From contig CAYHBB010000040.1 of the NCBI GenBank assembly GCA_964354795.1, forward strand, positions 76,593-140,592: 64,000 bases of DNA. Reading direction: 5' to 3'. This stretch comes from an uncultured Planctomycetales bacterium (lineage in GTDB: Bacteria > Omnitrophota > Gorgyraeia > Gygaellales > Profunditerraquicolaceae). Positions 3,001 to 42,000 of the stretch are shown here, in pieces. The translations under genes and the position numbers were made by a program. Position 1 is the stretch's first letter. Each line of letters opens with the position of its first letter. The notes below the pieces were generated by a model that saw only the letters and a program-made list of their open reading frames with translations, did no database searches and was not told where the DNA came from.

Positions 3001-6000
3001 GTGCCAGGGGCATTTATCACTATAATCATTCTTCCAGATATTCCATAAACTGTCGCCTTCCTTGACAATGATAGTATCAGCCGCCCTCTTTTGTGGCTGA
3101 GCAACGGATTCCGCGTTTACCAAAGATGCAAATAAAGTTGAGGTAAGGATTGTAGCCAGCGATAGAAAACCGAGCAGCTCAATAAAAGTTTGGCCGCTGA
3201 CAACCTTTGCGCCCCTAATATAGCGTTGCTCAGGGATCGTTCCATCGCTAAGGGTATTGCGCAGCCGGTTATCTCTTGCAGGACCATGTGGTGCCGGACT
3301 GTCCAGCCCTTTGGTCACCGACCAGAAAAGAATATCCTTGGACGCTCCGATAAAAATAGAACGGTATGTATTCTCTCCTACGAGAAAAGTTATCTCTACA
3401 AAATTATATTCAGCATTAGTATGGACAATTTTGTAGTGGGCATTGATGATGATCTCCAGCGCCTTCTTCAATGGTATATCTGTCCCGCTTAAATCTTTTT
3501 CGGTCAACCCGCCACTGACAAAATCCTGAGCGATTCTTTCCTCTGATTCTCCCGTAGCCCTGGCAAGCTGCATTATCAGGGAATGCTGCATAAGCTTATC
3601 TTTTAAGGGAAGATTCGTTTTGATCTTATTCGCGCCTTCCTGTGGTTTCGCCTTGGACTTTCTTGCTGCTGCAACTACGAAAATCAGCCCTGCTACCACT
3701 AATACGCCAAAACCTACCACTAACCAAAACGGAAAACCCAGAATATTCGACGGAATCGTTGCAGTAATAGTAGTTATTGAGGCAACTAACGCAAAATCCA
3801 AAGGCACAATGGAAAAAATACCTTCCGGGCGGGGATGGGTTTCTGCGGACGATTGAGGATCTGCTGGTAATGAAGAATCAGGCATAGAGGATTTCTTTAA
3901 CAAATCAGCTACCTGAGCGGTTAACTGCGAGTTTCTAAAAGGCTTATGCATTATGGCATCTATAACAGTAAGATCCAAACCCCTGATCACATAACCGGAG
4001 ATCAATATAACCGGTATATTTTTATTCTTCGCCTTTACCTCTTTAGCTAATTCTCCGCCGTTTTTACCGCCGGGCATTTGAAAATCAGTTATGACTAGGT
4101 CAATATTTTCTACCCCTAATATCTTAAGCGCCTCTTCGGCATTAAGGGCGGTCAAAATATCATATCCTTCGCCACTTAACACCGCATCAAAAGTGCGCAA
4201 GATCATGGGTTGATCATCCACGAACAGTATTTTCTTCTTAGCGACAGATCCGGATTCAGTGATATCTTGAGAAAGCTGAATGGCCCCGTTTCTCGTTGAG
4301 TCCTCTTCTTCCTTCTGCGTATTCACGGGCTGAAGGCTGGGGATGACTTCCGAGGCGGGTTTGAAAACGCTTATCTCGGCAGAGCTTTGCCTGGCCTCGT
4401 CAGCAGCGCACTCCATTATCTTCGAAGACATTGCAGAAATAGGGATTCTCTGGTGCGGTATTCCGGCTCTGGCTATGCTATCCGGCATCTCTTCACAATA
4501 CCTGCTCCCATCTTTTGCAATTTCGCTTGGCGTAATATGCTGGACAAGAACTATGCCTCCGTTGCCCGCAATTTCTTTCGCTCCCGCCGTTCCATCCGAT
4601 CTCAAGCCTGATAAAACAACACAAATAACATCCTTATTGAATTCTGCTGCTGCCGATTTAAATAACAGGTCGATGGGAGAATACGCAATAACCTTACTTC
4701 TCCTAATGACCTCCCCACTAGCCGCGCTATCGAATAAAACCATAACTACCGGATAGCCGTTGTTATCTTTTTCAATCCAAGCATCCCGGCTAGTAACAAG
4801 TATCATCCCGCGCTCTAAATAGAACCTCTTTGGCGAATCCACACTTGGTTCACACAAAATGATCTTTCTCGACTTGTTTTGCTGAACAAATTCGGTAAAT
4901 GCGGCATAGCAGGGCCGTAAGTGTTCGTTAATTATGACCGGGGGATGATCCTGCGGCAATCCTTCAATTATCTCTTCGATCGCTTCATATCCACTGCGAG
5001 ACGCGCCGATCACGATTACCTTTCCTTTGTAGTCGATTGGCTTATGCGTGTCCGCTTGAGGAGTGGAAATTACTGTACCGAGAAGTATTGGTAGAATCGC
5101 AAGTGCCGCAATCGGCCCGGCGGTGGCTAGAATACTTGTGCCGATGCCGGCAAGGGCAAGCTTAATCGCGGCCCAATGCGGCGCGATAAAAAACGTTATC
5201 AGCGCGCCTACCGCCACCAACCCAATGAGCGCGATCAGGCTTACCCCGAGCTTAGTCGAGGGGCCTTGGCCTTCCTTCGGGGACACCCTTCCGATTTCCG
5301 CCAAAATTCTTGGCGGACTCGCCGCGTTTTGTGGCGAGGGCTCCCTGGCTGTCCCTTTTGCCATGAGGCCCCTTAACCTGATTAACTCATCACGGAATTG
5401 CTTTAGTGAAGAATACGCGCCGCTTCTTACCTCCCGGTGAAAAGCGCTAACTTCGCCGATCAGCCTTTGATTAACAGCTGTGTCATCAGAGAATCTTAGG
5501 CCGGGGATGATTTCCTCTATGAGCCTTCCTCCTTGCTCCCACAAAGCCGCATTAAAAAGCAAGCATTCTAGCTTAGGATAAATAGATAATTCCGTTTTTT
5601 TGTAATCAATAAAAATAACGTCTCCATTAGCAGTGACAATTTCATTATTGTCATTAATATCCCATATGCCGCGCACCCCTTTTTCCTCAAGATAGATGCA
5701 GATCTCGGTGATTTTTATCACGATATTAAATACCTCATCAACATATTCGCTAAGCGGCCTGCCTTTATATTTAAGAAAATGATGCGAGAAATCCCTGCCT
5801 TCTACATAAGGATAGACTATCGCCTCAGAATAGATATACGTATCATAATCGTCGGAGCTGATCCATAATCTCTTTCCGGGGTTTAATTCCGGCCTTGCGG
5901 TCATTCTGCGGGGACGATACACTTGAGAGTAATCGCCGCCTATCCTGTCAAAAGCCTCCTCTATGCCGTCACAGTGCGCCGTGTCGGAACAACCTTCCCG

Positions 6001-9000
6001 CTCTGTTTCAAGCTTGCGAATAACCACTAATTTCGCGGTATCCTCATCTACAGCTAAGTCCAGGCGCCGGGTATCTAACCGTCCGAAAGTACCGAGGATA
6101 AGGTATCTTTTATTTTCCTCCCCAAAGCTAAGCACTAACTCTTCGCATGGTTCTGGGGCCAGAACAATCCCTACCGGCCTTTCCCTGTTGACCGCTATGC
6201 GCATTAGTTCCGCGATCATCCTGTTCCTGCGGGACCTGTCCTCAAAGAAGAACCTAAACAGGTCCTCCGTGAACGCATCAGGCCTGTTTTTCATCCAGAA
6301 GAACAGCTCATCAAAACTCTCCCATTTCAGATCTTCCACTTCCCAAGAGCCGGGATTAGCCTTATCAAGCCTGGCCATTTCCTCGGCGATCCTATCCGCG
6401 TTCCCCTGTAGCTCATAATGTATCTGTGCCAGCGTTTCCGCCCTTCCTTTTATCCTGGACATTTCTTCTTCGGTCATGGGCAGGATAAAAAACGCCCTTC
6501 TTTCCTTATTGGAATCAGTTTCTGAATCATAAATAAATTCCCCGGGGACTCCCACCGGAATAAGCCTCTGCTTTAATCTTTCCTTAAATGTATCTGTCAA
6601 CTCCTCTTGGTCATATATATGCATCTGCTTTGTGACTTTATTGACAACTGAATCCAAATAACTAAAACCCGCCTCCAGATGCCCGCCGAATATTGTCCAT
6701 AAGTGGGGGTATTTCTTGAATCCTGCGCGCTGCTGCAGGATAAGGCCAAAATCCGGGGTTACCAGGGCGACATTTGCGGTCCTGTGCCAAAGGCCGGCGG
6801 CTTCAGCGATATTCTTATCTGCCTGGCCGATTACCTTTTCTTGGCCGGTAGTTGAGTTAGGGTCCAAAATATCGATTATTCTTCCGCTAGGATATAGAAA
6901 CGCAGGGTCCTCCTGCGGCAGGCGCAGCCTTCTTACAATTTCTTCGATCTTTTCTGCTTCAACGCCCAAGGATTTAAGATTTTCTCTTACTTGATCCAAC
7001 GCGCAGGCGCCAAGAAGGGCCTCTTTGCTTTTTTGCGCTTCCTCCCTTTCGCCGTACAGCTCTTCGTAATGGTTCATGACGCCGTTCATGATGCCGGAGA
7101 TCTGCTCCATCGTAGTATCGAACGGCATCTCGCATGTTAACCCGAGGAGAAAACGGTCGCGGTGCGCAAAGCGATCCATAATGGAGGATACTTCAGCCGT
7201 CAGCTCGGCAGGATCTTTCGCGGGAGTTATCTGTGAAGCCATGATGTTACCGATAAGATAATTTCCGGAAGCGGTAAGGACTTCGTACGCCTTTTCGAGA
7301 TCGACCTCCTCGTCGATGCTGTAGGCGTCGACGTTAAGGCCGGTCATGTTCGACAAAAACGGCGTCGAATCGCCGCAACCGTGGAAAATGACACCGATGC
7401 CCTTCGCCTTCGCCGCGGCGGCTACGGCGTTCACACGCCGCGTGATGCAATCGTCGTAATACGACGGCGTCATGATGGCGGTCGAAGGCTCAAGGATGAC
7501 GATAGCGTCCGCGCCGGCCGCGGCATACGCCTCGGCCTCCTGAGCAGAGACCTTTACGCAATAATCGAGGAGCGCCCCGAATGTCTCGGGATCGTCAAGC
7601 ATCGCCATGGCGGCATCCGCTTCGCCCACCAGGCGCGCGGCGAGAGTGAACGGCCCGATCACGTAGCCGACCTTAGCGACCTTGTTGCCGTATTCCACGC
7701 TGAGCGCGGCCATGGCGTTTATGAATACGCCGGTGCGGCCGTCCCTGTCGATCATCGGAAGTTTCAGTTTCGCGATATTCTCCTTCGTCAGAGTAAACGC
7801 CGGCCCAAATAACCTGCCTTCCTGGTCGATATGTTTCGGCCCGAAAACGGACCGTACCGGAAGCGCGCCGCTCTCTTTATTCGCCTGATAAACGGCCTCC
7901 GGCCATGATGAAAGATCCATCATCGTAAATACTACGTCGAGCCTGAGAGAATCCTGGACGAACCGTATAACCTCAGCCTGCTTTGACGGATCGGTGGCAA
8001 GATCCTTTACCGAATAGTCTTTACGCTCGTGTTCGTTAAAAAATTTCACTCCGCCGAAACTTATAAGCGGCATCCACATGGCTCTATTGCGCATATCGTC
8101 AAAGGTGATCCTTGCGGCTTCGGGCGCCGGAGCCGCTTCGCCTTTATCGACCCTGCCCCCGTCCAACGTCTCGCGCACCACCGCCCCCAGCATGCAGGCG
8201 CCAAGGATTAGCGGCAGGCTGTTCGGCGCGACAAACGCCGCCAACGCGCCCAGCGCCACAAACTCAAGCAACGCAATCATGCCTTGGCCAGACGCAGGGG
8301 ACACCCTTTCGATTGGCTTGATGGGTGTCCCTTGATTGGGTTCATGGGTGTCCCCATCTTGACAGAAGGAAGAACGCAGGACATACACAAAGGTCTCTTC
8401 TTGGATAAATACAGGCGCTCCCTCGCCCATATCATTCCATTCGCGGGACTTGACTTGGCGCTTATACGGCCCAAACTTAAAATAAGAATGATTTTCCCTG
8501 CCGGAAAACTCCTTTATTTTACTTTCGATTACGCGCGAAGCCTCAACTGAACAATGATCATCCGGGAATACTGAATGCCGGAAAATAACCCTTGCCTGCG
8601 CGACGAGATACTCCTGGACATTCGCAAAGAAACATTCAACATGTTCCTTATATACATATCTGTACCCGCCGTCAACAGACCTATCCCAACCGTCGACTGG
8701 AGAAGGAGTAAAGACAATAAGGTTAAATCTCCTTCCTTCCAGCCCCTGGAATAGATCTCCGCAGACAAACTCAAGCCTGCCCGGATTTGCGTTATTGTAA
8801 CCTAAGCTTTCGGCATTGGCCCGGGCGCAATCGACCGCCGCCTCTTTTACATCTGTAAATGTCACATGGCCGGCTCCCCGGCTAAGCATGATCAATCCTA
8901 ATATGCCTGAACCCGTGCCCAGATCAAGGCAGCGCTGGCCCGAGATGTCCCTGCCTAAGCGCTTTGCGATCACCCCTGTCAGCATGCCGCTGGGGGTGTA

Positions 9001-12000
9001 GACATCTCCCCCTGAAATTACGTACCCATCAAGTTCGGCTACATAGACACTCTCCCTCTGACGATAACTATACCTGCTTTTCAATGGTACCGGAAAATCC
9101 TTAGGCCTGGCGGAAGGCTTATTTCTTTTTATTCTGATCTTCTGGAAACTTCCTTCTTTCGACCATCGACGGGCGAGAGATTCCGGGACAAAAACATCTT
9201 CAGAATCTGAGAGGCTGCAGCACAATAAAAGCAGAGCTAATGCAAGAAAACTTAAATTGCCTGCGGAGACCACTGGCAAAGCTAAAAAATGTGCCAGCGC
9301 TCCGAGAGCCACCAGACCCGTTAGAAATACCAAAACGCTTACCTTGCTGACCAAAATTTCTAACGGGGCCAGCCCAAGGAGAGCAATCAGGATTGCCCCG
9401 AGCTTAGCCGGGGGGCTTTGGCCGGAAGATGAAACCCGGCCCTGTCTTTCCTGCATTGCCTTCTGCATTGCTTCGGCTAAAAACCTACAGGAATCCTCCC
9501 AGATGACACCTTTATTTATGTATAGGACAATTACCCCTTCTTTTCCTTTTAGTCTTTCCTGAACAATCTCTTTTGAACCATCGGTCCTCAAAATAACAAA
9601 AGTATCGGGCTTTATAGTTTTAATTTCCGACGCAAGCTGATCCCCATCCATTGTACACATATGCAAATCAGTAATAGCTATATCAAAGGGGCCTTGTCCG
9701 CTTTTGAATATTTCTATTGCCTCCTCTGCGCTATGTGCCGAGACAATGATGAATGCTGGATCGATCTTTCTTAATTGCCTGACCAGCAATTCTAAATCTT
9801 CTTCAGCATGTTCTATGACTAAAATTTTAATTGGAATATTTATATGTTGTGCGGATTGAATAGTTGCGGCGATAAAGAGGAGGCCGAGGCCAAGCGCCGC
9901 AATTGGTGGGCCGTGGTGCATGAATGCGCCGGCGATGGCAAGCTTAACCGCAGCCCAATGTGGCGCGATGACAAAAGCCGTCAGCGCGCCAAAGGCCATC
10001 AGCCCAAGAAGCGCGATCAGGCCCTGGCCACTGCGTGATCTATTTATCGAAGCACTGCCGGCCTTTCTTTCCACATACTCATCCACCGCTTTTAAGAATG
10101 CCCTGTTTTTCTTTGATTCAAGATAATAAAATGTATAGGCGTGCAATGGTCCCGCGGCGGAATCCATAATCTCTTTTTTCTTTAACCCAAACTTGGTCAA
10201 TTTATCAAAGAAACCTACTGCTGACCAAAGTTTGTCTTCGCAGGCTTCCGCGTGAATGGCGCCGTTGCCTATCTTCTGGCTTAAGGCTGCCGCAGCCTGC
10301 ACAAGCCTTGTGCCTACATAAGACAGCCCATTTTTGTTACCGGATGACCTTTGATGTTGCGGCTTGACGTCAACGGAACCGATAGCAAGCGCGTTATCCC
10401 TGTCGGGATACTCATAGTAATCCAGCACCTCCCTGTCAAATTTAAGGATCCCGGCCACTTTCTCCTTAGCGGTCAATACCAGCTCTTCCGATTCAAGATT
10501 AAGGAATCCGCGTATGATACAGGGCACTTTATTTCCGGCATCATCAATGACAAAAGTATCCTGCCTGAACCTGAAAAGCCCCCTGCGCAAAGCGCTAAGC
10601 GGATCGCTTATTGCTTCAAGTTTCAATCCTGCAGGCATCATGAGGGACAATTCTTTTTCCGCCTCGCTGGCAGAAGTAAAGTGCCTAGAAGGTATACCGC
10701 AGGATTCTGCGTTTACGACAAAATCCTGCCTGTCATCAAAATAAAGCATTTGCGAAGGCTGCACATAAAATTCCTGCTCGGTAAGCAGTAAGAATTTACG
10801 GAATATCTGCGCCCCGTCTCCCTTTCTAATACCCATCTCATAGGAGGCGTAAATACGGTCTGCCGCGCTTAACACTTCATATTTCCGCTTCAAATATGCA
10901 AGATGCATATGATTGGTATCGCTTAGGAAAGCCACTTTGATTCCGCAAGCCTTGAGCTTTTTTATCAGGTCAGCCGTATCCTGCCTTAGCTCGTATGAGC
11001 CGTTCCAGATACGCTTAAACGTCGCAAAATCAACACCCTCCAATTGAAGCTCTTCGGACATCTGCGCTACGAACTTACTTGTCGAGACCTCTCCTCTTTC
11101 GTAGCTGTGGTAGACGCCTGAATCCCTTAAAATAGCCGTTACCTCTTCTACTGTCTTATTGGTAAAGCCTTCTTTTACGAATCTCTCAGCTACCCTTTTA
11201 AAATCAAAATAGACAACAACGTTTCCAATATCAAAGACTACAAACCTTAACCTATCTGTGGATTTCTTAGAAACTGAAGAGGAAGTGTGCGTGGAAGACA
11301 CCGCTGCGGCAAGGAACGGGAGGAAAGCTATCGAAGCCAGTGGCCCGGCAATGGCAGGATGGCTCGCAAGACCAATGATGGCCGCCAGCAAGCCCAACCC
11401 TGCGAAACCAAAAAGTATAAAACACGCTAAATTATGATCAAACCAACCATGCGATCTTCCATTGGAAGAAGTGCGTTCGAGGATCTTCTGCTGATAGTGC
11501 TTTATCCAATAAAAAGCGTTATTAAGCCTCTTCTCCTGCTTTTTGGGATCCAACGCTTCTTTTAAAAAATCCACCCCGTCTTTACTTATATCAGATTTTT
11601 CTGACGCCTTAATAATAGTGTCCCTGTACTTGATGAAGGCCTGCAAGACCAGAATCTGTGTTTGTGAAGCCCTGATCTCATCCTCCTCGAATCTTAACGC
11701 CCCATACTTGATCTCATTAAGCATGTGGCCGTAAGCCTCATGGACAAAATCAGCCAGCATCACCGACGGATCATTTAAAACATTTTCATTAAGAATGATC
11801 ATATAGCTGTTTGAATTCGTTCTTTTGCTGAATATCTCAATATGTAACCCTGCAGGAGCTCGCCCTTCAAATCCCTGCGGGATATACCCTTTGCTGAATT
11901 TATAAAGCTGGACCATTTGCTCATCCGAGGCCCTGCATATACGCAGCCTATCGGTTTTCCAAAGCTCCAACACCAAGGTCAAATCAGCTTCCCCGGAGAA

Positions 12001-15000
12001 AGCGCCAACCATAGCCATCGCGACCTTGATCAGATCCAGTTTCTCTTCTTCGATCGCCTGAGCGGATACTTTTTCCAACAACTTTAATTCTTCCAGCTTA
12101 GCATCCTTAGGGCTCAATATTCTTCTGCCAAAATCATCCTTCATACCAAGCCCATTGACAGAGAGCTTAACAACCAATTTTACTCCAAGCAATGCTGCGA
12201 CAAGCGCCAAAACAGAAGCGATTACCGTTACTTTAGGTTTTCTGAAGAAAGCGAACACGCGGCTTCGGTCGGCGATTTTTGCCGCATTGATCAACCGCCC
12301 TGCTTCCTGATGGGGGCTGGGCCGGTCTTTTAAGGAATGCTCTATGACTTCGTGGATTAAGTCTTCTTTTGCTTCTTGGGTTTCTTTCTGGAAAGAACTC
12401 AGGCTTTCTTCGGTAACGATCAGGGTGATTTTTCCGTCAATGCTGATGATGACTGCGCCAAAATCCTTATCTATCCCTATTTCCCGATGCCTGACTACCG
12501 CGATACGATCAATACTTTGGACTACGGGCCCGGCGCGGATATCTTTAGCTTGAGCAAGTATTTTGCCTATCCCCTCCTGCTGCCCGGTTAAATACGCATT
12601 CACCCAAGGCATATCAACTTTGATTATTTTATTCTGCCCGAAGACTTTCTCAATTCTTTTTAGATCCTTACGTTTTAAGGCTCCAGTTTTACCGCGATTA
12701 TTTTCATCCTCTCCGGGCAATTCAGCGTCGAAAACTGTTTCCGCCTGGTTTTTCCAGAGCTTCGCTGTTTCCCCATTATGTCTCACCATTATAATCTTCC
12801 AATCAGCCCTAAAGGGATTCCAGTAATTCTGTCTTAAGTTTCCCTGAAGGATATGCGGGTACTTTCTCTTTATCCGTTCCCAGGTTGAAACATAAAACTC
12901 ATCAATGCCCATAGATCGGGCTACCTTCATGACATGCCTTATGGCAGCGTTGTTCCACACCCGGTAAGGATTCTCTTTAAGTTTTATCTGCCGCACGCCT
13001 CTGCTGGGATGCACTTCTTCAATAAAAAGAGCGGGCCTGCCGTCGCAGTAAAGATCTATTATTCCCACCCTCAGCCTTCCAAAAGAGCCATCCAGAGGAA
13101 GATAGGCATCGTACTCCGTAGGCGGGAATTCGACCAGGGCAGAAAGCTCAGGATGTCCGTCGATAAAACCTTCTTGCGGGAATATATCTGCAAACGGCAA
13201 TATCCGGTAATCAAAATCTGATTCTGTTAAATCACAGCGCGCAGGTATCATAAGGTTGCTGCCATCGCAAAACTTATATTCCCATTGGAAATCAGGATCT
13301 ACCTTTATCCTCTCAAAGAGCTCACCCGTTAATCTGTCTTTTTCTATTTGAGTCAATCCTTTTTTATCTTCCTCCGTTGCCACTCCGATGGTGCAGGCAC
13401 TAAGCATTAACGCCGCCGGCAGATAACAGGAAATAGCAGAACCAATCCCCGTGAAAACGAGCGCGGAAAAACCAAAGAAACCAAAGAGTACGAACATTAT
13501 TGGATACTGGTAGTAATAATTATAAGGCTCGAGGGTATCAATAATAATATCGGGATTACGCGGCCCATTGGTTTCCTTTGTGTACATATATTTATTCACG
13601 TGCCTGAATCGCTGCATTATCTGCCACCATTCCGGAAAACGTCCGCGCGCCCTGACCTTAAGCCGGCCCCTCCTTACTTTCTCATCCGTAACTATCACTT
13701 CGGCAAATACGTCGAGAAAACCGTTATCCTGCGGTATCCTGTTGACCCCTTCCACTATAAACACATCTACATTTGAGTTATCCTTGCATAAACCAGCGAA
13801 TGTCATCTCTGCCCATGATTCCAGAGGGGTCCTTTTTTGTTCTTTGAAGGCAGTTTTTTTGTTCATTCCGTTTGATTTCAACCAATCAAGCAGTGTATTT
13901 CTTATTAGGGTCTTACCGCTTCCGGGCTTGCCCTTGATCAGGACAACCACCGGCCTCTTGCGGCCCTTTGCCAGCTCCTCTTGAATGCGCTGCTTTAAGA
14001 CAACCAAACCCTGTCTTAAGCCAAATGCATTAGGTGAAGACAGGTAATCGGACCGGGCCATGCCAAGCAAAAACGGCGCGGCAATAGACACTGAAGCGAA
14101 TAAATTGAACCAGTGGTTTTGGGCCGCTTCCCATAAATCAAAATCAAAATTAGAAATTGATATGATCTGAGCCAGAAATGCCAAATACCAAAGCACAGCA
14201 GCGCCAAATATACCCCAGAATACCCACCGTCCAAATAGACTGAATATCTTTTTGAAATCAATATGCCAACAGCTGGGCCTATCCATTGACTCGGTTGCCT
14301 TAAAGACTTCTATTCTTAACTCCTGTGGTAGCTGAGTATAGATAGAATCATCGAGGATAGCTGCCTTTGCCCAATGTGTGATCGCTGTTTTTTCATTACC
14401 AAGAAAATAATGGATGTAGCCGAGATTTCCATGCGCCGCAGCGATATTTGGGTTACTAACCAGGACATCCTTGAAAAAGGGAATGGCTTCGTGATACCTT
14501 TCTTCTTCGCAGTATTTTAACCCCAGGTCAAATAATTCTTTTATTGTGAGCTTGGAATGCCGCAGGGTATATCTTTTTTCGCGGTTTTGACTAAGTTGAA
14601 CGCACATCCCTCCCAAGACAAAAAACGTAATAGTGGCGAGAACGCTTGTGCCGATGCCTGCCAGCGCAAACTTAATCGCGGCCCAATGCGGCGCGATAAA
14701 AAACGTTATCAGCGCGCCAATCGCCACCAGCCCAAATAGCGCAATCAGGCTTTGGCCGGAATTACCCTGCTCCTCAGTCGGCGGATTCAATGGATCATTG
14801 GAACGGTAGTGGTCAATAGAATAAATTTTTCTTATGATATGTGGATAGCGATTTTTATTTTGATATCCAGGAATAAATATATTATAACTTTTATCAATCC
14901 TTACTTCAGATACTCTGGCTAAAGACAAGAAAACCATTTTTACTTTTTGAATATGCGTTCGTAATTCATCAACTATCCCACGATCAAATTTCTTTAACCT

Positions 15001-30000: not shown

Positions 30001-33000
30001 CGTCCAGTCCGAAAAATCGGCCTTCTCCATCGAAGACCCCTCGGGGAAAAGCTTCATGATCAAGACCGTGCGGTCTTCAGCGGGCAGCTCGGCAAATAAG
30101 TGCGGAAAATCGTTTCTTATCCCGAATCTATGCAGCCGGTAATAGATTTCTGCCTGCGGGGATTCCTGCGGTTCAAACGAAAACGCATGGGGGGAAGTCT
30201 TCGGCTTAGAAACCAGCACAGCGCATCTTTTAAGATGGATCCCAGCTTTCAGGTATTTAAAGACCGCGAACATCCCTCCGTCATCAATAAAGCTGAAGCG
30301 CGAGCCATCCACGTCATATTCATGGCCCTCTTTAGGATTCCTGATGCATAAAGCCTTATGCGCGATCCTCGCCATTTCTTCATCACTGAAGGCGCCTGAG
30401 GAGATCATACCCATCATAGATAAGCCAAATACCGCTATTATCCCGGAATTTACAACAATCTCCGACACTAATAAAGCGCTAGCAACCAAGCCAAGCCCAA
30501 TAAAAATAAACAACCCAGATATGATCAAGTCTACGCGAAGTAAAGATTTGCTCTTTATCGTTTCTTGAATAACCCTCCCTAACAACAATTCTGCGAACAG
30601 TTCGATATTGTCGCATTGCGGATTAAGCGTTCTCAGTATTGAAGATGCTTCCGATAACATGCGTCTTTTTAGCTTATCTTTATCATGCCTGAATTCAGCA
30701 TGGTTTGAGTAAAGGAAATATTTATACGCCAGGCTGCCTATTACATCTATCTCCTTATCCTTTAGTTCTCTGACTATTTTATCCAGGCGTTCATTTAAGG
30801 CCTTTTTATGCAGGTATTGACTGATCAGTATTACACAGATAAACGCAATTAAAATACCAGCGACAAAATAGACGCAAGGATGGATTACGGCAAACGGCAA
30901 AATTGTAAATCCCATTGCGCCGGGATTATTATCTGACTTATAAAACTTACGCTTAAGCAACCATACAATAGGTATCAGGGAAGCTAATATTACGGCGAGA
31001 TTTTCCCGGATCTTCTCCCAGATTATCTGAATGATATCCGGCACTCCGGGTTTGCCTTCCTCCTCTATATTTATCTTCCTATCTCTCTCGACGTTTTTCT
31101 GCGCATTTTCAATAAGATTTCGCGCTGCCTGAGGGCAGGCGACCTGTTCGATCAAGCTACCCCCAAGCGTTACGAAATTACTGCCTTTCGCAAAATAAAC
31201 ATTATTGGTGCTGGCTGCTGAGCACAAAACCGATGTGAATAGAATGATGAACGCCGCGAAAATACTGTTTACTGCGCGGCAGGAATCGTTATCCGGCCCG
31301 TTGGCCACCGCCGCTTCCTTTATAATCTTTATTCTCTCCACAAAAAGAGAAGGCGAAGAGTCAAAATGGACAAATACTTTTCTGATGGCAGGAAGATGTA
31401 AATCTTCGGTTAGTTCTAATGTTCCTGAACTAAATCTGACGGCGTTCACAAAAAGGCGCGCCTTGCAGGCAACAGTTCCTTCTCTGGCCATGATCCGTTC
31501 ATATTCCACTTCCTGACCTACGGAGAAATCCAGTATTTCAAGCTGCTTAGAGGCTTCGGTGAATTCCGGTTTTGTTTCAGTAAGCTTCTTAGCTTCCCTG
31601 TGCGTTTTCTTTATTACGGCTTCTTGGTATCCATGGTAGGAGACTGCCTCAAGCGCAGTGGCGAGGTTGCCGTTGAATTTCTCGGAGAAATCATCGGCAA
31701 ATTCTTTGGAAGAGAAATATATTTCGAGGGCACCTTTGTATCTACGCTCCCAGATGAATTTCTTAAGCGGCGGCGCGCGCGGGTTCTGACTGGTGAAATA
31801 GAAGAACTTGACCGGCGTGATGCATATGGCCGCAGAGAATCCGTTGAATTCAGGAAGCGAAGCGAACGCGCGTTTACGGATCAGGGCCTTACACCCCTTT
31901 ACTTCATCATCGCATAAATTCCCGAAAAATCCGTGCTTTTGACCATCGGACCGCCCTTCTTCCCGACTACTGCCGCAATTGCCATTTAAATCTGTGTTGA
32001 CGCGCGACTGCGCAGCTCCGATCTTCACATATGAGCCCTCGCCCCGGCTTACATAATCTACTATCTTAGTGAATATTTCCCTGGCGCTAAGACCCTGCGC
32101 CCGGCAGAGAGTGTTCGTAAAATCTCCGATAACGATCATTTTCTCCTTTGCCCGGGAAAGTGATACGTTTATCCGCTGCAAGCCGTCCATGGTCTCAAGA
32201 AAACCGATATTCTTAAGCTCCCCTTCGCTGCCATATTTACTACGCACCATAGAAACTATCACTACCTTGTTCTCCTGTCCCTGGATAGCATCGATAGTAT
32301 TGACCATAACGTGTATCTTGTGCACATCTTCTTCGCTGAATAGCCTGCGGCCCTGTAAAGAAAGATCGAATTTCACAAACTTAAGGAACGAATACAGACT
32401 CGAGGGATAGGGGTCCTTGATGAAATTTACGATAAAGCTGCGGCCGCGCGGATTAGACATGGCCTCTATATCAACCCTCAAGCTTTCCCTCAAAACACTT
32501 TTATCCTCATCCGTAAGATTAACTTTAGATTGGCCACTGGAACGTATTTTATCGATTACTGACTTTAAACGAAGAGCCAGGACTATCTCTTCATTTTGCG
32601 CAGCATAGGGTGAGATAATCGTGACGTCCTCGAAACCGTAGCGCCAGCTCTCATCCGACTTTACCTGATTTAAGATCAATTCCAACTCGCGCAAAACCGT
32701 GCTTACTTCGCGGATATTATAAGAGGAGAAGTTAAGCTGTGCCTCGCGGCCTGCGATATCAATGAGCTTAAGCGTATCTTCCTCAGCTATCTCCTTATCC
32801 TGCGCCTCATGGTCGCGCGCAAACAACTGGCCATCGTAAAAGATATTCACCAGCCCGGTGATCAACGGATGCGAACGTCTGTTCACTCTAAGCAGGTGGT
32901 GATCAAGGGAAATTCCGCGGTCACGCTGAAGTTCAAATGCGCGCTGGAAAAGAGAAATCTTGAAACTCCAGAGGTTGTCAGGCAAGAATATTTCTTCAAG

Positions 33001-36000
33001 CGGCGGCAGGCTGAATCGCTGCTCGAGGGTCTTACCTTCCTGGCGCATGATCGCCGCCTCTTCGTGCACCATCGCCTCCATATCCTGGCTGACTCCGAAA
33101 GCGGGAAGCTGCATGTGGTCTCCGACCAGGACGATCTTTTCTCCTGCCATCAACACAGGAACGATCGTTTCGGCGATAGTGGCGCGGCCGGCTTCTTCGA
33201 TGATCACGATATCAAACCTTCTGAAGAAACCGTTCTGGCGGATAAATTTGTCATTAAGGAACCCGTTATTCGTCCCAAGGATGACAAAACCGGATTTCTT
33301 CTTAGCATACCCCTGCTCAAACTCACGCAGGCACCTCTCGCGGTTCTTCCAGTTGGCTTTTATCTCATCGCTTATCTTCTCCTCCTGATTGCCGACGCGT
33401 ACAAAGGGTATTTGCGCCCTGCTCAGGCGCTCGCCGATATTGTTCACAGCAGCGTTAGACTGAGATACCACAAGCACCCGCTTTCCGTATTTAATATAAT
33501 ATCTTACAATGTCAGTTATGGTGGTAGTCTTGCCTGTACCGGGAGGGCCCTGAATAAGTGTGACAGAAGGCTCAAGACTTATGCCGGAAAGTACCGCGTT
33601 TCTCTGAGAGACATCGCTACGTATCAATTCGCTCACCGAGTCGATGTTTCTATCCCGGAAATCTCCCGGCTTATCCTTTTTCAACCCAAAGAGTATATCT
33701 AGGTAAGGATTAGCCGTGGTAGCCTTGCCGCGCGCAATTGACGACTGTAATTCTCCTATGACGCTGTCAAAATCTTCCTTCTGCCTTAAAAGAGAGGTGT
33801 CTTCGACTCTCTTGATGAAGCCTTTTGACCTGATGCAAATTAGGGCGCGCTCTTTCTGCTCGATGTTATCAAATTTAAAGACGATACTATTATCTTCCGC
33901 ATTTACTCCGACGACTTCAAAATAGTCATCGGTAACGGTCTCGCCTTCAAAATCAAGAAAGACAAAGCTGTCGCCTATGCGAGCCACATCTTTTGAGCGT
34001 ACGGTTATCCCTTCGAGAGCCGCAACCCGGTTATCGGTCTTCAGACGAAGCCCCCGCACAGTGAATGTATCTTCGAACTCTCCCTTAGGTAAGGCGCAGG
34101 AAGAATACAAATATTTGAAGGAGCCGTAAACATTTTTGATCCTGCGCTGCCTGTGTTCGACAGCAGTCAGGAGCGCTGAGATGATTCTATAATGGGGAAT
34201 AAGAAGTCTTAAGGTAATATTCCCGAGGGCAACGCTCTGCGCTTTCGCAAAATCTTCGTAGCCGGAATTTTTCTTTATCAATTCCGAAGCAAAGGTAAAA
34301 ACGGTCTCAAACTCGCCCTGTTTATTCATCCCCTCGAGGACTCCCAGGATCTCAGCGCACACCATCCTTACTTCTGGGCCGAGTGAAAAAGCGGCTAAAT
34401 ACATATCTTTAGTCCTGACAAAATCATTCTCTTGCAGAGTTTTGCGCGCCTCTTTCAAGATAGCTTCTCTTTTTTCAATAAGAGACCTGGCCTCTTCGAT
34501 TAGTTTTGCGGCCCGATGGTCATCAGGGCAAATCTTCAGGATTTTCTCGGCCGACTTCAGCGCTTCATCGGGATTACGGCCGCACAGGCTTTGCGCGCGC
34601 TCAAAAAGCTCAATCTTCTGAAGGAATCTGGTGATTGTCTGGTCTTTATCCGAACCTGTTGCAGGATTAAGCGCCTGTGCTAGCCTGCGCGCTTCGGCAA
34701 GATTACCAGCAGAATACTGTTCCTGCGCCTCTGACATCGTGTTCACTGTTAAGTAGAAAGCATGCGCGGCGGTATCCTGGGCGTTAAGGCCAAGAGCAGT
34801 ATTAAGCCAATTCAGCGCCCGCTGATAGTCAAAAGTACTGTATGCCTGACGTGCTTCTACCATGAGGCTAAGTATCCTCTCTGAGCGTTCGATAAACCAG
34901 ACACATTCGCCTCTCTTCAGCGCCAGCTCTCCTTCTATGCCCAGATACGCCTTCGCATCAGAGATCACTTGCGGATAAGAGCCCGTCTGAAAAAGCTGTT
35001 CCAAACGTAAGAGCACGATATCCGCGTCTTGCGCGGCAAGGTTATTGATTTCCGTTTTAAAGCCCGCGAAGGAGCGGCGGATAGCCTTATTGCTTATCCT
35101 TTCAGCGTCTATCTCGCTTACAAAACGATAAAGTCCATTCGAGTAAAAATATCCCAATAGGTGCAATACCTCTTCTAGTCTCATACCGTTGGAATCTTTC
35201 CCCTCAAGCAGGCAAGGCAAGGCAGCGCACAGATAATCGACAAATGGTTTACTACGATTCATCACAAGAAACAAGATAATCAGCTTCTTTTCTTCCTGAG
35301 CAATAGAAACCTCGCAAAGCATGGGAAGCAGTGATTGGGTAATCCTTTCTTTGGCGGACTCAGGAAGAAAGATAAAAACCCTGGAAAAAGCGAAGAGCAA
35401 TGTGTCGACTACCTGGGGATCGGGATCAAGGCGCAAAAACATAAGCATTTCTCGCCTGATGGAGTCTTCCTGGCCGCTGCGAGCCAGGGCATAAAAACGG
35501 CAAACGCTTAAAGCGCAATAGAGCGGGAAATAACTCACAGGCAGCTTAGTAATATCGGCAACTCTTTCTTTGAGGCTCATAAAATCATCTTTGAATATAT
35601 CGTCAAACGCCGCAATCAAGGCCTTCCCGATATCGGGTAAATTTTGCTGCTTGGCGAATGCCTTACGGATACTTTCTGCCATGGAAGCGGCCTTTTCGGT
35701 TCCGAAATCATCTCCGGCATCCTCAAGCGACTTTGCGGTAAAAGCCATGAGGATTGCATGCAGGATAACAGCCTCAAACATAGCGGATTGCTGCGATATC
35801 ATTGATGCCATGAGGTCCGAAATATTCACCAGCACCTTAAGGTTATTGCCGGATAACTTATAAAACATTGCCAGCGACTCCCAGTCGTTTATCCGCACAG
35901 GTTCCTTCTCCTGCTTTTTATTATTTACAAAGGCTTCTCGGGACTGAACGAGCTTATACAGCTGGCTTTTGAAATTGATCATCCGGTTTGCGTTTGCGCT

Positions 36001-39000
36001 AAACTCATCAGCAATAAAATCAGCTTTTGCGCTGGCCAGATCTTCGCCGACCAGTTTGAATATCTGGGGATCCAGGCTGTTTCCTGCCTGCAGGCATTCA
36101 TATTCTTTCAGGAATCCTTGGGCCTTGCTAAAGGCGTGATTTTGATATGCGTCTTTAAATGCCATCGCAAGCGCAAAGACATACTCCGGTGTCCGTTGAT
36201 GATAGCGGTAACTGCGGAAGAGCGCGATAACTTTTTCTATGCATTCAAAATCGCGCTTCTGCTCTATTAGAGCGGCGGGGATAGTCATCCTTTGATCAGA
36301 AATACTTATTAGTCCTTCAAGGCCGATAAGTACGAGCCTTCTTACTGATTCAACATACAGACAGGGACCTGCGAAAGCAATAATGCCCTCAAAGACGCTT
36401 TGCATATGCGGCCGGTCATTCTTGCAGGAATCAATAATGTTATGCCACCACCTGCAGATAACACCCATAAAGCTTGAGGCATAAGAATCCTCTTCCTGCG
36501 GCCTGCGCTGTTCGTTGAGATCGCCAAAATTATCATTCATCCAGGCAAGCACATGCCGGATGAGGCCTATGGCGCTATCAACCTGTTTCTTTTGGGTAAG
36601 TTTCCCTAGATGGATATCGGTCCGCGCCAGCGCAGCCTGCATATCTTCTGCCAACTGCTTGCCTTTGGAATGAGAAAAAGCACCGTAACTCTCGTGGGCT
36701 TTCTTTATTGCTGTAAGGCGGTCGAATAGGCCCTGAATATCCTTGGTCTCAATATTAAGCGCTACGACCTCTTCGGCTGTCGGGGGTTGATCGTTATTCT
36801 CTTCGCAGTTTAAGGCGCTGTTTAAAAGCCCCTGAAGCGCGGATTTATAGGTATCCTCAAAGCGTATTTCAAATAATTCTTCGGCTTGCAACAAGAGTTC
36901 AAGCTCTTTCTTACGAGTTTTAAAATATTCGAAGCTCGCGCGGCAGGCTTCTCCGTGATTTCCATATAAGAATTTCGCTGTCTCATGGCGCAATATATCG
37001 CTGAAAAATACCTCGAAAATAACGCAGCGGGGATCGTATCGATCATACGGCGGAGCGCGCGCGGCGATCTCATCAAGTACGGTTATTTTAGCTGAGCCGC
37101 CTTCCACTTCAGCAATATTTCCGGAAGCGGTACTATCGCTGAATCCGACTTCAAATTCCCGGTCAGGCCTGAAACGCGTAAAATATTTCTTAATATATTT
37201 ATAAATTTCCTTTAAATTGGCCTTGCCGTTGCCCTTGATCTGGCCGCAGAGGGTCGCCGGATAGGCATGCGAGCCAAGGCGTCCTGCCATCTTCTTATTC
37301 TGTTTTGCCCTTTCGCTCAGGGCCCTTTTAATAAGCAGATGAGCAAGGTTCTCTACCTTTTTACGGCCTTCACCGACCCTACTAAGTATAGAAATTGCTT
37401 CATGCAATAACGCATCCCGAAATTTTTCTTTATTATCCTGATATTCCTTCTTTTGCAAAAGAAAATCATATTTAATCACGAGCTCGCGCACCCCATCTTT
37501 TCCCTGCTTCTTAAGCTTATTCAGCATATCATCCAGGTAAATATTCAATATTTCCTCTGTATTGTCTTTTGAGCCTGACTTTACAGATAAGAATATTATT
37601 ACTCCCAATATTATGATACCGACAATACCAATGGCCACATAAGCCGATACCGGAATAACAGCCAGCGGCAAGGCCGCGATCCCCATCATTGCGGAATTAT
37701 TCCTCTTTTCTTCATCCGCCTTGCGCTTAATCCACGGCATCAATGAAGCTATAGCAGCCAAGATTGCAAGAGACACAACAGCTATCTTGCCGCACTTCTT
37801 TGACTCCTGTTCAAGCTGTTCTTCAATTTTACGCGTCTCTTCATTATTCTTAGCGATTATCACCTGCCCTTGCGCTATTTCCCTGCGGTAATCCTGGTTA
37901 AGCAACGTATCCTCATCCAGCGCTTTTTCGTCTAATCCAGAGAATCGCGCTTTCGGGTTATTTGTGAACTCGCTAGCCGTAAGATCGACCAAAACCCCAT
38001 CCTGCATTACCGTGAAACTCCCGAATAGTTTCGCAATAAAGCTATCAAATTTTTCTTCAGATGAGCCGAAACAGAAACAAAAATCTTTCGTGGAATTAGT
38101 CACATCCACTAAGGCAAAGGTGCCATCGCTTAATCTTACAATATTCGCCACATGGTGGTATTCTTGGCCAGACTCATTCTTTGCTGTGCAGGGAACCGTC
38201 CCGGCGTCTAGGCCGCAAACCCTGGCCATCACCTCAAAAAGGCGCGCATATGTCGCGCAGATCGCCTTCTTTTGCTCGAGCGCTTCCCCGATAAGCAGGC
38301 TCTCATCTGTATAGGAAAGATTTGACCTGATGACATGAATAAGCCATTTTGCCGTCTGCATCTCTATGTTCACCCAATCTTTAGCGTAGTCTTTACGTAC
38401 CTGCTCGTTCTTAAGCAGCTGCCCGATCTGTGACAGAGTTACTGCAGTGAAATTTGTTTTATATGCCTGATTATATAAAATGACAAATTGCTCATAAGCT
38501 TCCCGCGCGAACTTAGATTCCTGGTTAGCTTTATCGATCCATCCGCTAAACACTGCTTCTAATTTATCGTCGTTATAACCGGCTTTCTGCAAAGAAACCC
38601 TATCCGAATCAATAAAAGCATATTTGCTGACTGTATTGGTGTCTGGGCCCTGGGCAAAAACACCGCTAGCACATATTCCAGACAAAAGGAGCATGCAAAT
38701 GGTTTTGCCGAATAAATACTCGACCAAACCGTTGCCTTTACGTAAATGCAGCGCCCGAAGAAAGCTGGAAGGATCTTCTTCTTCCGCCTGATAAGCCTGA
38801 AGCATCCTTAACTCCGGATCAGCCTTCATTAAAGGCATGATTATATCCAGGATCTTTCCCGCCCTTATAGGATGGCTTAATTTTCTAATCGCCTTGGCTT
38901 TCAACTGCTTTATCCTTCCTTCACTTACACATAATTCATCTGCCAGCTCCTTGTCAGATAGTCTTGCGCTCATGCCAAGATAATTACGCATTACGATCTC

Positions 39001-42000
39001 TTCCCTGGCGGTAAGAGTAGGCAACACAACTTCCAGCGCGCGCTCCAAAGCAGCTCTTCTTTGGGTGGAGAAATCAGGAATATTCTCCAACACCGCATCA
39101 AAAGAACCCAAAGGCATCATCTCCTGCTGGCTATAAACCTTAATATAAGCGCGGACTTCCGGAGTAAGTATGGATTTATTACGGAAAGATCCTACCTGGG
39201 CCTTGAGAGCCTCAAGTTCTGTAGATTGTCTTTCGTGGATATCGGAGACTTCTTTAATGAAGAAATCTATCACCTCTTTGGGATAACCTTTGTTCTTAAG
39301 GATCCCCCTTACCGTATCTTCCTGGCCTTCGATAAGCCAGCCTAAAACGTTATCAGCTATCTCAAATTCTTCCGGAGGCCCCTGCTCTTTGCCTGAATCC
39401 TCGATATATTGAGTTGCGATATCCAAAGCCATTTGCGAGAGAAGCGTAAACTCGTGGCGATATTGCGGATATAATTTTGCCCCAAAGCCCTGTCCCGCGG
39501 CGGTGATGGGGTGGGAAACGACCTCTTCCAAATGCCCGATACCCATGATCCTATACAGCGCAAATTTCGCCCATACCTGTAACTGCAAGGGTTCCTGCGG
39601 ATCCTTCATGATGTTTTCAAACAGCGTACGCGACCAATGGAGATACTGGCGGGAGCTTTCTTGATGCCACTTCAAAACAATAGATAAACATACGACCGCG
39701 TCTTTTCGCACCAGCGCATCGTTATCTTTATTGATGATGACCTTGAACAAGATATTCGCCAATCTGTCTTTTTCTGCATCTGTAATATAGTAAGACAGGC
39801 GGCCAAGGGCAAAAAGCTGAAAGCGAAGTTCGCAAAGCGTAAAGTTATCCAACCTGCCGTCTTCGCGTACACCCTGCTCGCATCCTACGAGACTCTCCAG
39901 CTTATCGATATATATAGGTATGTCTCTGCGGTGATAAAACAATCCCATAGGAGCCATCTCAATAGCGATCTCATAGAGGGAATGGCGGTAAGGCAGTTTT
40001 CCCTGCGTACGCTCCTGGTCTATCTGGGTAAACTTCATCAGGTATGGGTCTTTTTTGCGGACCAAAGAATCGGCCCTTTCAAAGATAGCGGAAGCGTGTT
40101 TACGTACCAAGTCGATCAGGTCAAAAGAAAAATCAGCCTCTGACTCAAGCCAATCCTCTAAAAGCGCCATTACCCGGTGCAATACCAGAATATCTATTTC
40201 ATCAGTGACATGGATACGGTAGAAATCAGAGTCCCGTAGGATAGCAGCGACACCGTTAGCGTGATTATGGCGGATGTCTTCGCGTGAACAACAGATGCCT
40301 CCGCCGTTAAGCAACTCTCCTGGAAGGTAGATTATCCCGTGTTTCTTTAATTCCGCCTGCAAAGAACGCTTAATGGCGTTATTCGCTCCTTCGGAAATAA
40401 TCAGACACTGCAATTTGGAAATCTGCGCGATATCACAAATAACATTGGCTGCCGCCGCCAGACACAATATAGTCGTCTTCTGGTATATAAGCTCATTTAC
40501 AATCGTGGCGTCCCCGAATACCGCTTTTACTCCACGAGAAACTAACCCCTCTGTCAGCTCTTTGATTTCGGCATCGCTAAAGACGTTTTTGCCCGTTTTG
40601 GGATTAAGGGGATTGGCTATCCAGATTGTCGAGTGCTCCAATCCGTCGAGATTCCGCATCCCCAATAAATTCTTCAGCGTCAGCTTATCCGGGTCAGCTT
40701 CGGCAATGCTGCGCGCCTCAAGGAGAAAATCTCTCGGCAAACCCTCCTCGCGGTAAATAGCAAAGAACTTATTGGAGAAACCGCGTATCTTGAAATTGAA
40801 TATGGAAAAAAGAGTCATAAGAAGCTTGGCCACGCCGCTGCCTACATCGCCAAATCCCTGAATGATCCAGCTGATACAATTAAAATCTATTTTCAGGTTC
40901 CTGATGAATTCAATCACTTCCGCAGGATAATAAGCGCTGGCATCCAAAATATGCTTTAACATCCTTAATGCGGTGACCGTACCCTGCACCACCCCACGGC
41001 TGGTGACCATCCAGGCGGTATGAGAAAATCCGCCTTCTGATTCCGGGTTGCTGGTTGTAGGCTTCAAAACCTCTTTTTCATCGATAGGCTTTATGCCTAA
41101 ACGCTGGGCATTGGCATTGATATCCCGGACGGTTTCTTTTGCAGTCCTGACCATAATACCCATGCGCCTGTCCACATCGCGCATCATATCGGGCCCGTCG
41201 ATAATCGCAAATCCTAAAAGGCGCGCAATAACCATAGCCCTGGTATATTCTTCAAAGACCTTATCTTCTTCAGCAAGGATCCTTGCCTTCTCTTCATCGC
41301 TTTGGCCGGGCTGCGAAGAAACGCTGGGGCCTAAACGCGTGATGCGGTCTCCGCCCTTACCCATCAATAATCCCATATCATAAATATCCTGCGGGCCGTA
41401 AAGCACAGGCATACCTATCCAATTATCCTTATCCTGGATAGCGAAGGTAGTCTTCTTTCCGTGATAAGGGATTTCCCAGATTGCATTCTTATATTCCATG
41501 GAATTGGCCAGCTGGGAGCCTTCATGGGCGAGCCCGAGCTTACTACGCGGATCAAGGATAATATTGACCTCTTTTAAGACTCCGCGGCCGACGAAAACAA
41601 TAAGCAGCGGGTTTTTGTCCAACGGGCAATTCCTGAAGATTTCGCCTTTGAGCGCGATGGCGATAGGTAAGTTTTTTTCTTTCCTGTACGCGTCATCAGT
41701 CGTGTCTACAATGACATTTGCCTCTATCTCTTCCGCGGTCAGGTCTAATTTTTCTCCTAGCTTAAAGATATTAATGATAGACTGGATGAGTTGTTCTCTA
41801 TCAGCCTGCATATTGCAAAAATCAAGAAGCGACAGTTCTTCTTTATTACTTATTCGGGTAAGGTTTGCTTCTATTTCTAGCTTTGCGCCTTCGGAAAACT
41901 TTTTACGCTCAGGCAAAGATTTACCTCTATGCATTACTTTGCGGATTAACTCCTCGATCTCGGTGTTTGTATCGTGCTGGGTCCGCAAGGCCAAAGACGC

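Follow-up and report, generated by a model that had tools for sequence, protein, structure and literature searches.

Receiver, CheB-like, kinase-like and orphan sigma-70 region 4 modules among metabolic enzymes in a stop-free 64-kb reading frame

Contig CAYHBB010000040.1 (assembly GCA_964354795.1) carries, between positions 76,593 and 140,592, a stretch of 64,000 nucleotides, hereafter called the window, that is read through from end to end by a single frame on the minus strand. Three receiver (REC) domains, a CheB-like methylesterase, a PAS domain, a Hanks-type kinase bead and an orphan sigma-70 region 4 are encoded in this frame together with many metabolic enzymes. In a six-frame stop count, the reverse-complement frame at offset 1 had no stop in all 21,333 codons (1..64000), while the remaining five frames had 623 to 1,565 stops each, about one per 14-34 codons. 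A listing of open reading frames (ORFs) of at least 150 amino acids (aa) gave only seven in the 64 kb, all on the plus strand, and the giant frame is missing from it because it exits the window at both ends. GC skew of the plus strand is negative throughout the window and uniform, which fits one single coding strand. Thus, the window is an internal fragment of one minus-strand gene of more than 64 kb, both ends of which lie outside.

The translation was scanned with Pfam in 27 overlapping chunks of 1,000 residues, and a rescan of the isolated signalling segments agreed with it. For residue i the window position is 63999-3(i-1), so that coordinates descend along the protein; all features given below lie on the minus strand. 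About 30 distinct Pfam families were found, all in this one frame. The initial annotation of this DNA had described three REC domains, a CheB methylesterase, a PAS domain and a sigma-70 region 4 embedded in the enzyme chain of a membrane-tethered giant protein, and had named profile searches as the check. All of these domains were recovered where it had placed them, with Pfam matches above the gathering threshold (GA), and the E-values of all signalling modules stay at or below about 1e-4 after multiplication by the 27 chunks. The interleaving with enzymes was equally borne out; about 25 further families share the frame. They include three epimerase or GDP-mannose-dehydratase domains, PGM/PMM I-III, Glucosamine_iso, GFO_IDH_MocA and Bac_transf. 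There are also a cytidine-deaminase-like domain, HD, Glu/Leu/Phe/Val dehydrogenase, a transglutaminase core, an SF1 helicase (AAA_11/AAA_12) and YrbL-PhoP_reg, and the rest consists of TPR, HAD, MTS methyltransferase, URO-D, LysM and a weak NUDIX. For the N-terminal 1,000 residues, a word-index homologue search gave distant epimerases only. We read the window as belonging to a giant gene of the 'multi-enzyme' type that has been described in Candidatus Omnitrophota.

The chain consists of modules of 150-2,000 residues linked by transmembrane hairpins. About 50 uncharged hydrophobic stretches came up in a hydrophobicity scan; about 22 of these span 36-68 residues and have the form of a hairpin, that is, two helices with a short uncharged turn containing Pro, His or Gly in the middle of the stretch. 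Lys and Arg together number 3.0-3.4 on average per 20-residue hairpin flank, compared with 0.27 within the stretch. By the positive-inside rule, the flanks, and hence the modules, would be cytoplasmic. Since each hairpin brings the chain back to its original side, most modules, including all of the signalling ones, are expected on one membrane face, which is most likely the cytoplasmic one as judged from the sequence. Beads that need NAD(P), ATP or nucleotide sugars, such as the epimerases, the SF1 helicase, the kinases and Bac_transf, fit this location. Loops bounded by single helices, namely the transglutaminase-like and LysM loops, probably project outwards.

The three receivers are spread along the chain. 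REC1 (3910..4230; PF00072, E 1.7e-17, 64.1 bits, GA 30.2; receivers of the PDB at E 1e-14) lies C-terminal to the CheB-like module. REC2 (9565..9825; E 5.2e-9 / 3.2e-10, 36.7-41 bits), which sits between two hairpins, and REC3 (25492..25803; E 5.3e-14, 52.8 bits) stand alone; each begins within four residues of a hairpin (REC3 four residues after it) and has no output domain attached. REC1-3 were aligned with E. coli CheY. D13, D57 and K109 (CheY numbering) are invariant across the three receivers and CheY. REC1 has the DD pair, the acceptor Asp in LVITDFQMP, a Ser at the T87 position and the Lys in HKPF, and REC3 likewise keeps the DD pair, the acceptor Asp, a Ser at the T87 position and the Lys. 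In REC2, Glu-Asp with a 4-residue insertion replaces the DD pair, and the acceptor Asp, Thr and Lys are kept. The PAS domain (26014..26325; PF00989, E 1.8e-8) forms the C-terminal end of a bead that also holds a Glucosamine_iso-like module. It passes the thresholds of both PF00989 (34.8-36.8 bits, GA 22.6) and the sensory-box model TIGR00229 of NCBIfam (43.3 against 22.9). This domain closes its bead right before the hairpin preceding REC3, a hydrophobic stretch of two to three helices by the hydrophobicity scan (25813..25974) that separates the two.

The CheB-like methylesterase/deamidase module (4417..5016; PF01339, E 6.9e-22, 78-81 bits, GA 24) forms a single bead with REC1. The bead is opened by a transmembrane hairpin, LIALIGLVAVGALITFFIAPHWAAIKLALAGIG... 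(5053..5250), one of the uncharged stretches of 36-68 residues, which is conserved in protein with many synonymous differences. The module was aligned with six canonical CheB proteins and with P0001, its closest relative (40% identity). It keeps the Ser-His-Asp triad in GASRSG, NEHL and SDG, and S28, H54 and D163 are invariant columns of the alignment. In the order of translation, the methylesterase (residues 19662-19861) comes before a Ser-, Glu- and Gln-rich linker of about 60 residues, which leads to REC1 (19924-20030). The canonical CheB proteins of the alignment have the receiver N-terminal to the methylesterase, which is the opposite order; the 'native CheB order' ascribed to this pair by the initial annotation therefore does not hold. 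Against the CheB model of NCBIfam, NF001965, the module reaches 86.9 bits where the cut-off is 293. P0001, a stand-alone protein of 585 residues, lacks a receiver, and its gene neighbours greA on a short contig. A word-index homologue search with the CheB-REC query returned ordinary two-component proteins and P0001, and nothing else. No CheA, CheR, CheW or chemoreceptor was found in the Pfam scan of the giant frame. Just after REC1, between hydrophobic segments, lies a marginal LysM match (2917-3069; E 2.7e-4, 21.2 bits against a cut-off of 20.9). This stretch could be an outward-facing, peptidoglycan-binding loop.

A Hanks-type protein-kinase bead (29362..30384) is set between two hairpins, and PF00069 matches its part 29680-30078 at E 7.6e-7 to 3.6e-6. 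The motifs present are HRDFGPRN, DFS instead of DFG, an alphaC Glu and DWFGFG. The Gly-rich loop is degenerate, and the beta3 Lys misses the VAIK position by one residue in the alignment with Wee1. Solved kinases (Wee1, ULK1, RIPK1) match the bead at E 2e-4 to 3e-3, and the alignment takes in the Gly-rich loop, alphaC and the catalytic loop. The kinase-like fold claimed for this place is supported by a Pfam match there and by a catalytic loop that aligns with solved kinases, but the score stays under the GA. Close homologues of the bead were not found by word-index search, and AlphaFold2 run without an alignment gave a pLDDT (predicted local distance difference test) of 38, too poor for reading a fold. 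From its motifs, the bead would be a divergent Hanks-type kinase that may be active. Inspection of catalytic and phospho-acceptor residues, which had been proposed along with the profile searches, was favourable for the most part: the acceptor Asp of the receivers, the CheB triad and the HRD..N/DFS of the kinase are intact, and the departures are the displaced Lys and degenerate Gly-rich loop of the kinase and the ED in place of DD in REC2.

The orphan sigma-70 region 4 (38875..39024; PF04545, E 0.8-1.6e-6, 27.9-29 bits, GA 24.1) contains both 4.1 and 4.2 and is RpoD-like. Region 4 of RpoD/SigA structures in the PDB aligns with it at E 2e-7, and its tail reads AIRKLSHPIR compared with ALRKLRHPSR. 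RpoD models of NCBIfam match it by their C-terminal ends only, and the sigma-70 superfamily model TIGR02937 stays below its cut-off (33.5 against 42.9). In the 176 residues upstream, neither Sigma70_r2 nor Sigma70_r3 was matched even at E <= 1. In the numbering of E. coli sigma-70, Glu and Gly stand at the positions of R584 and E585, two of the residues that read the -35 element. Lys replaces R588; R586 and Q589 are unchanged. The initial annotation had called this a 'canonical' sigma region 4; it is clearly of RpoD type, but it lacks regions 2 and 3 and has changed at both of these residues. The module is taken here not to be a sigma factor, and would be at most a tethered element that binds DNA or the flap of RNA polymerase.

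About 57 residues after region 4 there is a single transmembrane segment (38644..38703), whose positively charged N-flank suggests an N-in orientation. It is followed by a transglutaminase-like loop (37786..38643; PF01841, E 3.2e-6; Cys, His and Asp present) that lies between two single transmembrane segments and is probably extracytoplasmic. This transglutaminase cassette has 33% identity (E 3e-47) to P0132, which is MBF0122002.1, a Candidatus Omnitrophota protein of 5,491 aa. On the other side of region 4 lies a module of about 115 residues without a Pfam match, here called the X module (39130..39528), with the pattern H.IT...YP...GPPEEF.IA...W...F.I.Q..HE..E.A..AQ. The X module recurs in Omnitrophota giant proteins, with (S/G)Q between H.IT and YP in their common pattern: it was also found in P0139, P0141, P0138, P0233, P0204, P0260 (three or four copies in this protein alone) and a metagenome locus (L003:3674-4024). 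AlphaFold2 without an alignment gave a pLDDT of 49 for the segment of the X module plus region 4, too poor for reading a fold.

P0260, or MBF0486236.1, is a partial protein of 3,581 aa from a Candidatus Omnitrophota metagenome-assembled genome (MAG) and is annotated as a sigma-70 family factor. Pfam finds in it two copies each of Sigma70_r2 and r3 and three of r4, and then a transmembrane segment and an extracytoplasmic domain follow. Sigma-70 domains are therefore present in at least one other Omnitrophota giant. By eye, P0260 has additional r4-like helix-turn-helix motifs. Region 4 of the window had no phmmer match to the P0260 copies and is closer to true RpoD. A published description of such a 'poly-sigma' giant was not found in a literature search.

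Two larger units around region 4 were considered and rejected. The X module does not qualify as a sigma-specific leader; it stands before sigma units in P0260, but the modules that come after it in P0139, P0233, P0204 and L003 are unrelated. Likewise, region 4 with the transglutaminase loop is not a conserved transmembrane signalling unit, as the cassette of P0132 comes after a different module. A HMMER search with residues 8000-8810 (X module, region 4, helix and transglutaminase loop) against 1.84 billion representative proteins found none that covers more than one sub-module. Most of the named relatives of the sub-modules flanking region 4 are partial giant proteins of 1,843-5,817 residues from Candidatus Omnitrophota MAGs. 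The relatives from these MAGs include, besides MBF0122002.1 and MBF0486236.1, MBP7216038.1 (5,817 aa), MDD5246923.1 and MDD5584566.1. Modules of the window have 33-50% identity to such proteins, and the best relatives of four modules, at 31-39% identity, are proteins of Candidatus Omnitrophota MAGs.

Outside the range of these signalling modules lies a Peptidase_M50 module of site-2-protease type (58189..58560; PF02163, E 4e-20, 72.5 bits against 27.2), with HEFGH (residue 1823) and LLPVFPTDGG intact. An M50 module in the same protein as the sigma-related region had indeed been pointed out from the sequence, and it is present as described. M50 release of a region-4 fragment would be topologically possible, judging from the helix arrangement; the fragment is, however, held on its N-terminal side as well, by about 1,950 residues that belong to other modules. 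A Pfam rescan of the segment around region 4 gave no anti-sigma domain. The M50 module shares its polypeptide with its potential transmembrane substrates. In addition, a 22-residue peptide, VKTCHAPLQRIEKG(N/D)LLPSVAG, occurs twice with 91% identity (57883-57948 and 44908-44973), each copy about 75-130 residues before a hairpin and one of them just after M50. It could be a recognition or processing motif.

Seven hairpins within window positions 5053-21507 (residues 14165-19649) share an SGQ[SG]LIALLGLV... motif, with turns such as IAPHWAA or AGLIHAP. Pairs of these hairpins have 60-88% protein identity, and their identical residues use the same codon in 40-70% only. High protein identity with differing codons points to linker sequence kept by selection, and not by recent duplication alone. 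The motif was absent from the 12 large Omnitrophota relatives compared.

Some other features of the chain deserve mention. A complete Upf1-like SF1 helicase is encoded at 32122-33615 (AAA_11, E 5e-36; AAA_12, E 1e-20 to 1e-22). A nucleic-acid helicase is unexpected in a membrane-tethered chain; it hints, as region 4 does, that the chain may touch DNA or RNA. At 17518-18639, Bac_transf, a phosphoglycosyl transferase with its own N-terminal membrane helix, is directly followed by a YrbL-PhoP_reg kinase-like module (17518..18075; PF10707, E 1.2e-7, 32.1 bits, GA 31.5). This is a second kinase-like fold, absent from the initial annotation. A 227-residue module without a Pfam match is duplicated (15484-16164 and 12685-13365) with 82% amino-acid and 87% nucleotide identity. 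Both copies come after a hairpin, and this looks like a recent internal cassette duplication.

Giant proteins of this kind are already on record. West-Roberts et al. (2023; 10.1101/2023.11.21.568195) described giant genes of Omnitrophota coding for up to 85,804 aa with many transmembrane regions, the 'Archaeovorins', and proposed their post-translational cleavage from C39 and S8 peptidase domains. Nielsen and Lui (2026; 10.64898/2026.06.07.730766) catalogued 916 long proteins, defined a 'multi-enzyme metabolic cluster' class with many transmembrane helices, and discussed, for nearly half of the entries, anchoring in the membrane with the domains on the cytoplasmic side. In that set, PF00072 (REC) occurs in 105/916 proteins and PF02518 (histidine-kinase ATPase) in 136/916. 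The class comprises proteins of at least 10,000 residues with many Pfam families, none of them dominant, and many transmembrane helices (10.64898/2026.06.07.730766); the window falls within it, as the product exceeds 21,333 residues, draws on about 30 families and has single helices besides about 22 hairpins. As regulatory domains including REC are part of this record, the gain made here is incremental. It lies in details that the two preprints do not report: a CheB-like methylesterase placed ahead of its receiver, a region 4 of RpoD type standing alone, a kinase bead, and hairpin linkers that are conserved. In their texts there is no mention of sigma-70, CheB, a Hanks kinase, PAS, M50 or conserved hairpin linkers, and their supplements hold nothing on sigma, CheB, Pkinase or M50 (10.64898/2026.06.07.730766; 10.1101/2023.11.21.568195). 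A full-text literature search combining Omnitrophota, sigma factor and giant returned nothing relevant.

The reading that we favour, with moderate confidence, is that the signalling domains are single beads in this known type of domain chain and act as local switches on a membrane-tethered enzyme assembly. The membrane-stitched enzyme chain would face the cytoplasm and carry these switches along its length. Histidine kinases from outside the window, encoded in the remaining part of the gene or by other genes, would phosphorylate its receivers, and phosphorylated receivers would alter the activity or contacts of neighbouring beads. REC1 might gate the adjoining CheB-like methylesterase, and the Hanks-type kinase might act on Ser/Thr of modules close by. 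For region 4, the reading is a tethered helix-turn-helix rather than a sigma factor.

Several observations weigh against this reading. At E <= 0.01, the Pfam scan of all 21,333 residues brought up neither HisKA nor HATPase_c, no HPt and no output domain of a response regulator, so that the regulatory set, which the initial annotation had considered 'near-complete', lacks its usual partners. The kinase bead scores 27.0-29.2 bits, below the PF00069 GA of 31.7, and covers only profile positions 70-191 of 263. When the signalling modules of the window were sought in 12 large relatives with phmmer, they had no counterpart, and the transglutaminase cassette was the sole match. The sub-modules around region 4 have separate relatives, which argues for cassette shuffling rather than a conserved circuit. 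The topology was derived from a hydrophobicity scan and the positive-inside rule, not from a trained predictor, and unstable topology predictions have been reported for such proteins (10.64898/2026.06.07.730766; 10.1101/2023.11.21.568195); one of these two preprints puts the metabolic content of its longest protein (147,155 aa) outside the membrane.

Other explanations were considered. The signalling domains may be accreted cargo, shuffled into the chain without a coordinated role and in some cases relics. Candidates for relics are region 4, without regions 2 and 3 and with changed R584/E585 equivalents, the sub-threshold kinase, and REC2 with its altered acidic pocket. Shuffling would also agree with the search in which none of the 1.84 billion representatives covered more than one sub-module around region 4, with the unrelated modules found before the transglutaminase cassette in P0132 and after the X module in P0139, P0233, P0204 and L003, with the recent internal duplication at 87% nucleotide identity, and with a window that holds neither a kinase partner nor an output domain. 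Nevertheless, the frame has been held open over more than 64 kb, and acceptor or catalytic residues are kept in all three receivers, the CheB-like module and the greater part of the kinase core. The retention of key residues in so divergent a protein is unexpected under neutral decay, and we regard a history of mere accretion as somewhat unlikely. A further alternative is an artefact, either a chimeric assembly or a long frame that is not translated whole. It is scarcely credible in view of the 21,333 stop-free codons beside one stop per 14-34 in the other frames, the placement of every domain match in the same frame and the uniform GC skew. Moreover, comparable Omnitrophota giant ORFs were independently assembled from long reads and were reported to be transcribed and detected by proteomics (10.64898/2026.06.07.730766; 10.1101/2023.11.21.568195).

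The giant may also be a precursor polyprotein that is cut, by its in-cis M50 acting on hairpins or single helices or by other peptidases, so that the REC, CheB-like, kinase and region-4 modules act as free proteins. The release of a sigma fragment suggested in the initial annotation would be one case of this reading. Here the intact HEFGH and PTDGG of M50 would supply the protease, and the hairpin linkers, under apparent selection and with the helix breakers Pro, Gly and His in their turns, would supply the sites; such conserved turns are, however, equally expected in plain hairpins. The position of region 4 shortly before a single N-in helix and an extracytoplasmic-type domain points the same way, but its release needs a second cut about 1,950 residues upstream, and neither an anti-sigma domain nor a site-1 protease was identified. 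The closest relative of the CheB-like module stands alone, and cleavage of such giants has already been proposed from the C39 and S8 peptidases (10.1101/2023.11.21.568195). Since the SGQ[SG]LIALLGLV motif is limited to one part of the gene and absent from the 12 relatives, it fits local duplication better than a general cleavage signal. A polyprotein is judged unlikely, though it is, together with accreted cargo, a serious rival of the favoured reading. In a bolder version, which we consider very unlikely, the membrane polyprotein would process itself as an 'operon in one ORF': its own M50 would cut the linkers and free the REC, CheB-like, kinase and region-4 modules. If this were true, release might follow a signal sensed by the transglutaminase-like and LysM loops, and region 4 of RpoD type, once set free, would serve as a regulator or as a decoy for RNA polymerase.

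The favoured reading, that of local switches on a tethered assembly, bears on the role of Omnitrophota giants. The window is a residue-level case of regulatory domains with intact active sites among metabolic enzymes. Intact regulatory beads argue for a regulated, cytoplasm-facing assembly or its precursor, and not solely for an extracellular adhesin or degradative effector. The three receivers, the kinase, the CheB-like hydrolase, the orphan region 4, the in-cis site-2 protease and the conserved hairpin linkers offer handles for experiments.

The modules can be compared with known systems. The CheB-like bead has the methylesterase fold, the Ser-His-Asp triad and a fused receiver with an intact phospho-acceptor pocket in common with CheB, the chemotaxis methylesterase/glutaminase. 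It differs from CheB in its reversed order, in its linker of about 60 residues and in its setting between transmembrane segments; its score is far under the NCBIfam CheB cut-off, and its nearest relative, P0001, is a stand-alone protein without REC. Region 4.1/4.2 of the window aligns with RpoD/SigA of several species, including the C-terminal motif ...RKL.HP.R, whereas no region 2 or 3 precedes it and the R584/E585 equivalents are changed. The likeness to RseP/S2P anti-sigma systems, which the initial annotation had raised, consists of an intact M50 and of a sigma-related module beside a single-pass helix followed by an extracytoplasmic domain. Unlike in those systems, a single polypeptide holds both protease and putative substrate, at a distance of 6,500 residues, and what is tethered is part of sigma rather than an anti-sigma domain. 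Neither a PDZ domain nor a site-1 protease was seen, and the M50 matches the RseP equivalog model weakly (25 bits against 147.55). Compared with the multi-enzyme giants and Archaeovorins of Omnitrophota, HATPase_c, SecA, C39 and HEAT were not detected in this 64-kb piece, whereas PGM/PMM, HAD, HD, methyltransferase, NUDIX, TPR and REC are content that it has in common with them.

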